Shown: positions 37,750 through 40,203 of the stretch, in pieces | Position numbering within the stretch: the first letter of the stretch is position 1 | How the letters are laid out: every line of letters starts with the position of its first letter | Assembly: GCA_949290705.1 (NCBI GenBank) | Contig: CASESI010000001.1 | Coordinates: forward strand, 37,783 to 101,782 | From: an uncultured Holosporaceae bacterium | Lineage (GTDB): Bacteria; Pseudomonadota; Alphaproteobacteria; UBA3830; CASESI01 | Length of the DNA: 64,000 nucleotides | Direction of reading: 5' to 3' | Notes under the pieces: model-generated | Databases searched by the model: none | What the model saw: the letters and a program-made list of their open reading frames with translations, nothing else | Told to the model about the DNA's origin: nothing | Made by a program: the position numbers and the translations under genes

Positions 37750-37905
37750 TTTTTTCTTATTGAGGGAAAAACTGATGTTGAATTATTTATTCAAAAGTCA
37801 ATATAAAAAAATATAATTTATTGATGACTTTATTTTTAAAACGTGTGATAATTAGTGTGTTGGTTTTTTGAAAAGCCATAGATTCTCTGGATAGGAGGGT
37901 GTTTT

Positions 37906-39933
37906 ATGTCTGAAAGTATGTTTATCACGTCTCGAACTCTGCCGTTAAATATTGTCAAAAGAGATGGCGCGAAAATTAATTTTGATATTAGTAAAATTAC
38001 GTATGCCATTGAACGTGCAGGTGAAGATACTGGAGAGTTTGGACATGAAGAGGCAAAACTTTTGACATATCAGGTTTTAAAAGTTCTTGAACATAGGTTT
38101 GAAAAACTTGAGCCAACTGTTGAGCAGATTCAGGATGTTGTTGAGCAAGTGTTGATTTCATCAAATCATTTCAACACAGCGAAGTCTTACATTATATATC
38201 GTGAAAATCGTGCAAAGTTACGTGAAGCTCGTCATGCTATGGTTGATGTTATAGCATCGATTGATGAGTATTTAAACAGGCTGGATTGGAGAATTAATGC
38301 AAATGCCAATCAAGGATATTCTCTCGGTGGTTTGATACTTAATATGTCAGGTAAGATGATTGCAAATTACTGGTTGTCTAATATATACCCAGCAAAAATT
38401 GGGAATGCTCACAGGAATGCTGACCTTTACATCCATGATTTGGATATGCTCTCTGGGTATTGTGCTGGATGGTCTTTAAAGATGTTACTTCTGGAAGGAT
38501 TTAACGGTGTGAATGGTAAGGTTGAATCGTCTCCTCCTAAGCATTTTGGTACGGCACTTGGTCAGATGGTGAATTTCCTTGGTACTTTGCAGAATGAATG
38601 GGCAGGTGCACAAGCATTTAGCTCTTTTGATACATATCTTGCTCCATTCGTGAAAAATGATGGATTGTCTTATGAAGAAATAAAACAAGAGATTCAGTCA
38701 TTCATTTATAATCTGAATGTTCCGTCAAGATGGGGAACCCAGACTCCTTTCACTAACTTGACGTTCGATTTGGTTTGTCCTGAAGATTTAAGGGAAGAGC
38801 ATCCTGTGATTGCTGGGGAAGAAATGCCGTTTGCGTACGGTGAATTGCAGAAAGAAATGGATATGATCAATCGAGCATATATCGAGAATATGCTTCAAGG
38901 TGATAAAAGTGGGAGGGTATTTACGTTCCCTATTCCAACTTATAACATCACGAAGGATTTTGATTGGGATTCTGACTTAACGAACTTATTGTTCGAGATG
39001 ACGGCGAAGTATGGACTGCCATATTTCCAGAATTTTATTAATTCAGAGCTTTCTCCGAAAATGATAAGGTCAATGTGTTGCCGTTTGCAATTGGATTTGA
39101 GGGATCTTTTAAAGAGGGGAAACGGTCTTTTCGGATCGGCTGAACAAACTGGATCGATAGGTGTTGTGACGATTAATTGTGCAAGGCTTGGGTATCTTTA
39201 TAAAGGAAATGAACAAGCTTTACTTGAACGATTGGATTATTTGCTAACACTTGCAAAGCAAAGTTTGGAGTTGAAACGTAAGACTATTCAGAATTATATG
39301 GATAATGGTTTGTATCCTTATACGAAGCGTTATTTGGGAACTTTACGAAATCATTTCTCAACGATAGGGGTGAACGGTATGAACGAGATGGTTCGTAATT
39401 TTTATTCTGATGAATGTGATTTAACATCAGAAGAAGGTCAGAAGTTTGCACTTAATGTGCTTGATTTTATTCGTGCAAAACTTGTTAAGTTTCAGGAAGA
39501 AACAGGTCATATGTATAACCTTGAAGCAACTCCTGCTGAGGGGGCAACTTATAGGTTGGCGAAAGAGGACAAGAAGAGGTATCCTGATATAATACAGGCT
39601 GGCACTGAAGATGCTCCATACTATACCAATTCGTCTCAGTTACCTGTTGGGTATACGGATGATTGTTTTGATGCTTTATGTAAACAGGAAGCATTACAGA
39701 TGAAATACACTGGTGGAACGGTTTTTCACATATACATGAGTGAAAGTTTTGGCGATCCTATGATGTGTAAAAAGTTGGTATGGAAAGTGTTAGAGAATTT
39801 TAGGTTGCCATATATCACGATTACTCCTACTTTTTCAATTTGCCCTAAGCACGGATATTTGAAAGGTGAACATAAATTCTGCCCAATTTGTGATGCAGAG
39901 ATTATGAATAAGAAGAGATGTTCTTGTAAGTAA
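37906..39933 (+). CDS. nrdD: Anaerobic ribonucleoside-triphosphate reductase (class III, NrdD), large piece lacking the glycyl-radical loop
   Basis: ATP-cone (IVKRDGAKINFDISKITYAIERA), NrdD core (SMCCRLQLD, GSIGVVTINC, YNLEATPAEG, YYTNSSQLPV) and zinc ribbon CPKH...CPIC. Preceded by a strong AGGAGG Shine-Dalgarno site. Ends at a TAA 13 codons after the ribbon. Confidence 0.9.
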   Translation: MSESMFITSRTLPLNIVKRDGAKINFDISKITYAIERAGEDTGEFGHEEAKLLTYQVLKVLEHRFEKLEPTVEQIQDVVEQVLISSNHFNTAKSYIIYRENRAKLREARHAMVDVIASIDEYLNRLDWRINANANQGYSLGGLILNMSGKMIANYWLSNIYPAKIGNAHRNADLYIHDLDMLSGYCAGWSLKMLLLEGFNGVNGKVESSPPKHFGTALGQMVNFLGTLQNEWAGAQAFSSFDTYLAPFVKNDGLSYEEIKQEIQSFIYNLNVPSRWGTQTPFTNLTFDLVCPEDLREEHPVIAGEEMPFAYGELQKEMDMINRAYIENMLQGDKSGRVFTFPIPTYNITKDFDWDSDLTNLLFEMTAKYGLPYFQNFINSELSPKMIRSMCCRLQLDLRDLLKRGNGLFGSAEQTGSIGVVTINCARLGYLYKGNEQALLERLDYLLTLAKQSLELKRKTIQNYMDNGLYPYTKRYLGTLRNHFSTIGVNGMNEMVRNFYSDECDLTSEEGQKFALNVLDFIRAKLVKFQEETGHMYNLEATPAEGATYRLAKEDKKRYPDIIQAGTEDAPYYTNSSQLPVGYTDDCFDALCKQEALQMKYTGGTVFHIYMSESFGDPMMCKKLVWKVLENFRLPYITITPTFSICPKHGYLKGEHKFCPICDAEIMNKKRCSCK

Positions 39934-39963
39934 GATTTTAGAGTTTTTATACTGAGGTGTAAA
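39931..39963 (+). other. In-frame TAA (39931-39933), 10 sense codons, and a GAGGTG Shine-Dalgarno-like site (39954-39959) separating the two nrdD pieces
   Basis: 37906 and 39964 are both 1 mod 3, so the pieces share a frame. The only stop between them is the TAA, and the ATG at 39964 lies 4 nt after GAGGTG. Confidence 0.9.
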
Positions 39964-40203
39964 ATGTTGAAAGAAAAAGATAATAATGTAAAAAATGCAG
40001 TAAATGATACTGAAATCGCGTTGACTGATGCTGAGCGTCAGCCTTGTGAGATATGGACGAGAGTTATGGGATACCATAGAAGTGTAAGTTCATTTAATAA
40101 AGGAAAGAAGAGTGAATTCGCAGAGAGAGTTTGTTTTGATAATATCTCTGGTTGTGACACATGTCGTACACAACAAAATGACGATAATACTAAATGTGCT
40201 TAA
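39964..40203 (+). CDS. NrdD C-terminal glycyl-radical domain encoded as a separate 79-aa ORF
   Basis: CEIWTRVMGYHRSVSSFNKGKKSEFAERV matches the class III RNR glycyl-radical signature (RxxGY...NxGKxxE). The Gly codon is at 40069-40071. Confidence 0.8.
   Translation: MLKEKDNNVKNAVNDTEIALTDAERQPCEIWTRVMGYHRSVSSFNKGKKSEFAERVCFDNISGCDTCRTQQNDDNTKCA

Follow-up and report, generated by a model that had tools for sequence, protein, structure and literature searches.

A probable two-polypeptide class III ribonucleotide reductase with its predicted radical glycine on a separate small subunit

The window analyzed here is a stretch of 64,000 nucleotides (nt) of contig CASESI010000001.1 (GenBank assembly GCA_949290705.1), from an uncultured Holosporaceae bacterium; positions are counted from its first letter. 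Between positions 37906 and 40203 it carries two adjacent open reading frames (ORFs), here called ORF A and ORF B, of 675 and 79 amino acids (aa). ORF A corresponds to NrdD, the class III (anaerobic) ribonucleotide reductase, up to its zinc ribbon, and ORF B corresponds to the C-terminus of NrdD with the glycyl-radical motif. The features of the locus, all on the forward (+) strand, are as follows.

37906..39933, + strand: large subunit gene (ORF A) of a class III ribonucleotide reductase, 675 aa, without the radical glycine (ORF and profile matches)
37948..38214, + strand: ATP-cone, allosteric activity site, residues 15-103 (Pfam PF03477, E = 1.3e-21)
38296..38316, + strand: NANANQG motif, probably the NxN flap closing over the substrate (sequence and analogy)
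39073..39084, + strand: finger-loop motif MCCR, residues 390-393, with the putative catalytic thiyl-radical cysteine (sequence)
39841..39891, + strand: zinc ribbon CPKH-x9-CPIC, residues 646-662 (sequence and alignment with phage T4 NrdD)
39892..39930, + strand: post-ribbon tail DAEIMNKKRCSCK, 13 residues with a terminal Cys pair, fitting D-x-E-[LI]-[ILM]-A-x-K (alignment of split forms)
39931..39933, + strand: TAA stop of the large subunit gene (sequence; the same in relatives L004 and L085, TGA in L089)
39934..39963, + strand: intercistronic spacer, 30 nt, with the Shine-Dalgarno (SD) site GAGG(TG) at 39954-39959 (sequence; comparison with L085)
39964..40203, + strand: small subunit gene (ORF B), 79 aa, bearing the glycyl-radical loop (ORF, profiles, relatives and selection)
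40021..40137, + strand: conserved core LTDAERQPCEIWTRVMGYHRSVSSFNKGKKSEFAERVCF, residues 20-58 (near-invariant columns in 274 stand-alone homologues)
40069..40071, + strand: Gly36 codon, predicted glycyl radical site (RVMGY aligned to the C-terminal Gly motif of Pfam NRDD, TIGR02487 and PRK08270)
40138..40200, + strand: variable Cys-rich C-terminal tail DNISGCDTCRTQQNDDNTKCA (close relatives likewise end ...KCA)

Comparison of both ORFs with NrdD profiles identified ORF A as NrdD up to the ribbon. The Pfam model PF13597 (NRDD) matched ORF A over model positions 2-532 of 562 (E = 3.4e-178), and the NCBIfam model PRK08270 over positions 4-657 of 684, with 1128 bits (cutoff 548). The protein has the NrdD barrel domain with the finger-loop cysteine motif and, by sequence, a C-terminal zinc ribbon as a predicted metal site. 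Its MCCR motif is of the type found in the double-cysteine, methionine-containing NrdD subclass (PMC9669993), and a substrate-covering flap has been described for Prevotella copri NrdD (PMC11226230). ORF A aligned with residues 19-564 of phage T4 NrdD and therefore ends, in T4 terms, exactly at the last zinc ligand, Cys564. A first-pass annotation, made from the DNA letters without database searches, had described a 675-aa frame at 37906-39933 with ATP-cone, NrdD core and a Cx2H...Cx2C ribbon, stopping 13 codons past the ribbon; coordinates and profiles agree with this description. The radical glycine (RVxGY) is absent from the barrel polypeptide and sits on ORF B.

ORF B matched the final 33 positions of the Pfam NRDD model (530-562 of 562, E = 4e-8, exceeding the gathering score) and positions 649-682 of PRK08270. 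PF13597 was its sole match in the Pfam scan, with no homology to the Gly_radical domain of the pyruvate formate-lyase (PFL) type. The motif RVMGYHR occupies ORF B residues 33-39, and its Gly is 100% conserved in the homologue alignment; the core of the family, [IV]xLxDxERQPCE[IV]WTRVMGYHRPVSxFNxGKxxExxxR, is nearly invariant. In a word-indexed search the lengths of the 120 best matches all lay between 57 and 101 aa. When 1.84 billion cluster representatives were searched exhaustively, 1316 relatives reached E<=0.001, 172 of them E<=1e-10; the 150 top-scoring ones of the 1316 were all 53-109 aa long, and stand-alone relatives formed at least 150 distinct 50%-identity clusters. With 1316 representative relatives, the ORF B match is far beyond chance. 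No dedicated model of ORF B was found in Pfam or NCBIfam, and a PDB sequence search with ORF B alone gave chance matches only, because the query is too short.

The proposed Gly signature in a separate ORF (39964-40203, Gly codon 40069-40071) was thus borne out by coordinates and profile matches. The accompanying statement that the glycyl-radical domain forms a separate ORF holds for the Gly loop and the C-terminal tail, which are on ORF B, and fails for the zinc-ribbon half, which is on ORF A; the "glycyl radical domain" of structural papers includes the zinc ribbon (PMC11226230). With the ribbon ending ORF A and the Gly loop on ORF B, the split falls between zinc ribbon and glycine loop. Since all NrdD elements are present across the two ORFs, the locus appears to be a two-chain variant of the NrdD family.

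ORF A and ORF B share a frame and are separated by one TAA and ten sense codons, the spacer having no in-frame stop, and GAGGTG precedes the second start codon (ATG, 39964) by 4 nt. From the Cys codon that closes the ribbon (39889-39891) to the Gly codon the distance is 60 codons. On each of these points the sequence agrees with the first-pass annotation, which had also estimated that an insertion of about 44 codons carries the stop, the SD site and the restart. This estimate is sound, since the ribbon is separated from a conserved Trp by 42 residues in the window and by 6-13 residues in compact fused relatives; the count of 60 codons from ribbon Cys to Gly is the one that takes in stop and spacer. 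The RNA fold of the junction was not significant (z-score -1.27), no terminator was found there, and promoter-like matches at the junction were no more frequent than in shuffled sequence. The Rfam scan of the whole window returned two tRNAs only, hence no intron or riboswitch. A split caused by a mobile element (intein, intron or homing endonuclease) was considered and rejected, given the spacer of 30 nt and the lack of an Rfam element or significant RNA structure at the junction.

Close relatives preserve this arrangement. An independent ENA assembly (L004) has exactly the same junction; the one difference in 511 nt is located elsewhere. A contig from the Joint Genome Institute (JGI), L085, was syntenic (rluD-like, gatC, dedA-like, nrdD, small ORF, frr, patatin); its ORF A protein is 92% identical, and TAA, 30-nt spacer and frame are all kept. 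The three JGI contigs L085-L087 have the TAA and the spacer length of the window. Between the window and L085 the synonymous substitution rate (dS) was 1.4-2.5, so that synonymous sites are saturated, and the ratio of nonsynonymous to synonymous rates (dN/dS) was 0.025 for ORF A and 0.16 for ORF B, whose core is unchanged. Both ORFs are under strong purifying selection. The spacer was identical to that of L085 at 28/30 nt, compared with 67% and 52% identity in the flanking intergenic regions. Another relative, L089, has an identical spacer with TGA in place of TAA; the stop has thus been maintained through a substitution. Two more distant members of the same AT-rich lineage differ at the junction: the spacer is 52 nt long in L088 (81% ORF A identity), where the frame differs, and 194 nt long in L090. 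Both ORFs lie in one frame in the window, L004, L085-L087 and L089, and in different frames in L088.

The split extends well beyond this lineage. Among the 120 best ORF A homologues (70-100% identity, 671-748 aa), 119 stop 11-33 residues past the ribbon without a Gly motif; in the sole exception, P0210, a 40-residue linker joins the two parts in a fusion. A scan for the small ORF with one genome per species matched at least 599 genomes, and frame and gap statistics were taken from the best 80 loci. The organisms named in these 80 loci are mainly Alpha-, Beta- and Gammaproteobacteria, with a few assemblies of Actinobacteria, Coriobacteriia, Acidobacteria and Parachlamydiales. The small ORF lies directly downstream of a truncated nrdD in 60 of the 80, in a different frame in 50 of these linked loci and in the same frame in 10. 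The rest of the 80 comprise one compact fusion, two long-linker fusions with a broken upstream frame, and about 19-20 loci with no nrdD upstream in the same orientation (19 without nrdD or nrdG within 4 kb). Across the 60 linked loci the median gap was 26 nt, ATGA overlaps were frequent, all three stops were used, and an SD-like site lay within 18 nt upstream in 48/60. The same-frame layout was not enriched (10/60, with one third expected by chance), and in at least 6 of these 10 the junction contains more than one in-frame stop. The activase gene nrdG was adjacent in 64/84 related loci.

Judged from these genomes, the split is the normal state in this clade, in at least several hundred species, and the window appears to be one ordinary member of a widespread, uncharacterised architecture. 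The in-frame layout given prominence by the first-pass annotation is real in the window; its significance did not survive the comparison, as the shared frame looks coincidental when 50/60 linked loci elsewhere are out of frame.

Some matches of the species scan stand apart. In Magnetospirillum fulvum DSM 13234 (L083, 4001-4168) the small ORF lies ~60 nt upstream of the class I genes nrdA-nrdB, with no nrdD or nrdG within 4 kb of it. Several Sutterella spp. (L020, L052, L057, L063 and L067) have the small ORF in a conserved context between phosphoribosyltransferase-like and M20 peptidase genes, and in other Sutterella assemblies it is linked to nrdD. The two long-linker fusions, L066 (Massilia sp. 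H-1) and L070, have ribbon and Gly loop in a single open frame, which extends upstream for only 234 and 426 codons; this suggests frameshifts or assembly errors and not true re-fusions.

The same layout was found in well-known organisms. On megaplasmid pHG1 of Cupriavidus necator H16 a 676-aa gene is followed by a 142-nt spacer with AAGGAG, a 66-aa gene, H16_RS32675, and then nrdG; RefSeq names the 676-aa product "ribonucleoside triphosphate reductase" and the 66-aa product "nrdD". A passage of PMC2864759, citing Siedow et al. 1999, gives the pHG1 nrdDG locus as essential for complete denitrification, so that a split-type locus appears functional in vivo. C. metallidurans CH34, which has the same split layout, is listed with NrdD and NrdG as Rmet_5137 and Rmet_5139, number 5138 being skipped (PMC2864759). 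In Ralstonia solanacearum nrdD encodes 685 aa, a 58-aa ORF overlaps it by 4 nt, and nrdG overlaps the small ORF. Paracoccus denitrificans also has the split layout, with A1B6C7_PARDP as its small protein, and the small ORF is present in Bradyrhizobium. Annotated nrdG genes of Cupriavidus, Ralstonia and Bradyrhizobium begin within the last 17-44 nt of the small ORF (L092, 3631-3647; L096, 3601-3638; L095, 3643-3686), which suggests a tightly coupled three-gene operon. On the Bradyrhizobium japonicum plasmid p2S06B (L095, NZ_CP066353.1) the small ORF and nrdG are intact, the large-subunit frame is open for only 84 codons, and a second small-ORF match occurs elsewhere in the record. Labels of the small ORF vary: "Oxidoreductase" in the 2003 pHG1 submission, "hypothetical" or "uncharacterized protein", and "anaerobic ribonucleoside-triphosphate reductase" from the pipeline; it is missing from incomplete PLSDB gene tables.

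One-chain relatives were retrieved by a search seeded with a compact fusion, which gave more than 100 sequences, the named ones coming from Desulfovibrio, Solidesulfovibrio, Humidesulfovibrio, Geothrix, Holophagaceae and some Burkholderiales. The compact fused sisters (Desulfovibrio, Solidesulfovibrio, Geothrix and Holophagaceae) are ~70-80% identical, and their 6-13 residues between ribbon and conserved Trp are exemplified by CPQC-EALG-ERQPCEIWTRVMGY. A quick and rough neighbour-joining tree of 217 large subunits, built with no outgroup, placed most fusions in one clade of 84 and implied at least 5 state changes, including two long-linker re-fusions. All we conclude from this tree is that split and fused forms are close relatives. 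Fused, split and small sequences were combined in one alignment anchored by the compact fusions. The split forms have a post-ribbon tail, D-x-E-[LI]-[ILM]-A-x-K (D 100%, E 94%, K 87%; n=122), and the small subunits have a leader, [IV]-x-L-x-D-x-E (L 93%, D 89%, E 92%; n=274), that continues with -R-Q-P-C-E; neither motif is present in the compact fusions. We infer that tail and leader replace the covalent link as a putative docking interface.

The two ORFs are two cistrons with their own translation signals, in a layout that is conserved and ancestral in a large clade. We consider it very probable that they specify the two chains of a class III ribonucleotide reductase, each translated on its own. 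Of the readings offered by the first-pass annotation, that of a two-polypeptide enzyme with a detachable radical-bearing subunit is the one supported by the comparative evidence. In such an enzyme the large subunit would supply the ATP-cone, a ten-stranded barrel with the MCCR finger loop, the CxxH...CxxC ribbon and the short conserved tail. The small subunit would be translated from its own SD site and ATG, probably coupled to termination at the TAA, and would dock non-covalently, placing Gly36 in the barrel beside the finger-loop cysteines as the C-terminus of a one-chain NrdD does. An NrdG activase encoded outside the window would install the radical on Gly36, and catalysis would then proceed as in other class III enzymes. 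Docking of two chains is physically plausible, since one-chain NrdD enzymes have a mobile glycyl radical domain, able to become disordered and then ordered again (PMC11226230). Docking, activation on the small chain and any selective advantage of the split are inferred.

Several points weigh against this reading. The 9-kDa product, the complex and the radical on the small chain are predictions. No nrdG was found in the 64-kb window by tblastn with Martelella NrdG, nor any ORF of at least 100 aa with CxxxCxxC, so that the cognate activase is assumed to be encoded elsewhere in the genome. In an AlphaFold2 model of the natural long-linker fusion P0210, used as a proxy of the complex, the mean predicted local distance difference test score (pLDDT) was 77.8 and the top PDB matches were NrdD structures, with a pLDDT below 50 in the Gly loop; residues 693-720 of a control compact fusion were also below 50, and as the control is equally poor the models say nothing about docking. 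The advantage proposed for a separate peptide, discussed below, is drawn from analogy. Finally, the in-frame, stop-free and conserved spacer may allow a minor read-through product in this lineage. Stop-codon readthrough was another reading offered by the first-pass annotation; it was weighed here in the form that some or all ribosomes pass the TAA and yield a fused protein of ~764 aa as the active form. The spacer is more similar to that of L085 than the flanking intergenic DNA is, and one of its two differences would be synonymous if translated (CTG to TTG); a ribosome-binding region explains this conservation equally well, and the SD site and ATG are conserved. TAA is the stop least read through by bacteria. 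Frame and stop context are not conserved among relatives: L088 and L090 have spacers of other lengths, that of L088 in another frame, most linked loci are out of frame with no enrichment of the same-frame layout, and the multiple in-frame stops at same-frame loci mean that readthrough cannot be the general mechanism. The shared frame being peculiar to this lineage, we regard a fused active form as unlikely.

A different role for the small protein was also weighed, as a GrcA-like spare part or cofactor for another enzyme, with the large ORF radical-less and having another role or none. The loci without nrdD or nrdG within 4 kb (about 19 of the best 80) and the small ORF just upstream of class I nrdAB in M. 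fulvum fit this idea. It is nevertheless very unlikely, for the small protein is at its core an NrdD C-terminus, with no PFL-type domain, compact fused sisters join the same sequence covalently to the same ribbon, the large ORF is under very strong purifying selection and keeps its catalytic motifs, and small ORF and nrdD are closely linked in 60 of the best 80 loci, frequently with overlapping ATGA. The remaining proposals concern the TAA itself. A lone in-frame stop in an otherwise intact gene is what a nascent pseudogene, produced by a recent nonsense mutation, would show. This was refuted by the relatives, which keep stop and spacer at synonymous saturation (L085) or have TGA at the TAA position (L089), by the constraint on the downstream piece (dN/dS 0.16), by the same architecture being the normal state in at least several hundred species, and by the ~43 extra linker codons with SD site and ATG, which are not the product of a point mutation; such a pseudogene is almost certainly not what lies here. 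A base-call or assembly error at 39931-39933, for which nothing speaks beyond the general possibility, has practically no probability either, as the independent assembly L004 has an identical junction and L085-L087 have the same TAA and spacer length.

The two-polypeptide enzyme can be compared with known systems. With one-chain NrdD (phage T4, Escherichia coli, Thermotoga maritima and Prevotella copri; activated by NrdG) the locus shares ATP-cone, barrel, finger-loop Cys, ribbon and RVxGY; it differs in that the chain ends past the ribbon, the Gly loop is a separate gene product, and ~43 extra junction codons are flanked by new conserved motifs. To our knowledge, all characterised glycyl radical enzymes carry the radical glycine on the catalytic chain, and no free-standing radical module other than GrcA is known. 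Like ORF B, GrcA (YfiD) of E. coli and T4 vs.6 are small stand-alone proteins with a glycyl-radical loop that can serve a large barrel subunit. ORF B (79 aa; homologues of 53-109 aa with invariant RVMGY) fits this description in size and motif. GrcA, homologous to the C-terminal part of PFL (Pfam Gly_radical), repairs that enzyme, which has its own glycine. A match to the Gly_radical domain is given for T4 vs.6 in PMC1524935. In contrast, ORF B is an NrdD C-terminus and would be the sole glycine source for its partner: ORF A has no glycine loop of its own, so there is no damaged C-terminus to replace. The GrcA/YfiD analogy drawn by the first-pass annotation therefore stands as a functional likeness and not as homology.

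Other reductases and glycyl radical enzymes divide their chains differently. Benzylsuccinate synthase, alkylsuccinate synthase and 4-hydroxyphenylacetate decarboxylase are multi-subunit glycyl radical enzymes whose small accessory subunits have other functions, the radical glycine remaining on the large catalytic chain. NrdJa/NrdJb of Pseudomonas aeruginosa is a class II catalytic chain in two adjacent genes giving two polypeptides (PMC4860495, PMC9669993), of a different class and with a different split point. Class I NrdA plus NrdB also has a stable radical on a separate smaller polypeptide that must dock; NrdB differs, being a ferritin-like metalloprotein with no relation to the small chain; its oxidant is tyrosyl or metal-centred and its radical transfer long-range, whereas the small chain here is a fragment of the catalytic subunit. 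A search covering full-text literature and the reductase phylogeny, review, database and structure papers, and not the 1999 C. necator locus paper, gave no description of a split NrdD. Reviews and the curated reductase database give class III enzymes as alpha2, the glycine belonging to alpha (PMC2795772). A glycine on a separate 6-9 kDa peptide in a large conserved clade would change this picture, and bears on activase access to the glycine, on coping with oxygen and on gene annotation; the split carriers C. necator H16, P. denitrificans and R. solanacearum are genetically tractable.

What the split might offer can be considered from the chemistry of the radical. Class III enzymes are cut by oxygen where the glycyl radical sits (PMC3019208, PMC2795772), so that a separate peptide would confine the damage to a cheap, replaceable part. 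By analogy with GrcA, the most likely advantage would be that O2 destroys only a replaceable peptide of ~9 kDa; the activase may also gain easier access to a free peptide. As an impression, without statistics, facultative or denitrifying bacteria prevail among the named carriers of the split, and strict anaerobes among the named fused sisters. A more specific and rather doubtful proposal is an exchangeable radical cartridge, in which NrdG would load the free or loosely bound peptide; after O2 cleavage at Gly36 the pieces would dissociate, and a fresh copy would restore the 76-kDa subunit with no need to make it anew. If true, facultative and denitrifying bacteria would gain a class III reductase tolerant of oxygen damage, and class III would functionally resemble class I, with a catalytic and a separate radical-storage subunit.

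Further observations concern the tails and surroundings of the two genes. In the AT-rich lineage both subunits have Cys-rich tails: the large one ends RCSCK (39919-39930) and the small one CFDNISGCDTCRTQQNDDNTKCA (40135-40200), and the relatives examined (L085, L088 and P0005-P0008) have such tails too, their small subunits likewise ending ...KCA. A C-x0-4-C pair was found in 28/122 large-subunit tails across the clade. These tails recall the redox-shuttle tails of class I and II reductases; as the large subunit has a free C-terminus, the Cys-pair tails seen in part of the clade could act as such shuttles. Upstream of nrdD, scans for NrdR and FNR boxes gave nothing above chance. Sequence blocks 5' of the gene (37750-37905) are kept in L085 (2446-2604), for example TTG.TGACTTT...GTGTGATAA, and may represent a regulatory site with no match to the NrdR or FNR consensus. 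In the window, nrdD and the small ORF stand between a dedA-like gene and frr, and most relatives have nrdG directly after the small ORF. The window is chromosomal (rpoBC, rpsL/G, fusA, dnaE, rho, gatABC and ligA), with a GC content of 34.6%, and the locus has its nearest named relatives among uncultured Alphaproteobacteria of gut and rumen.

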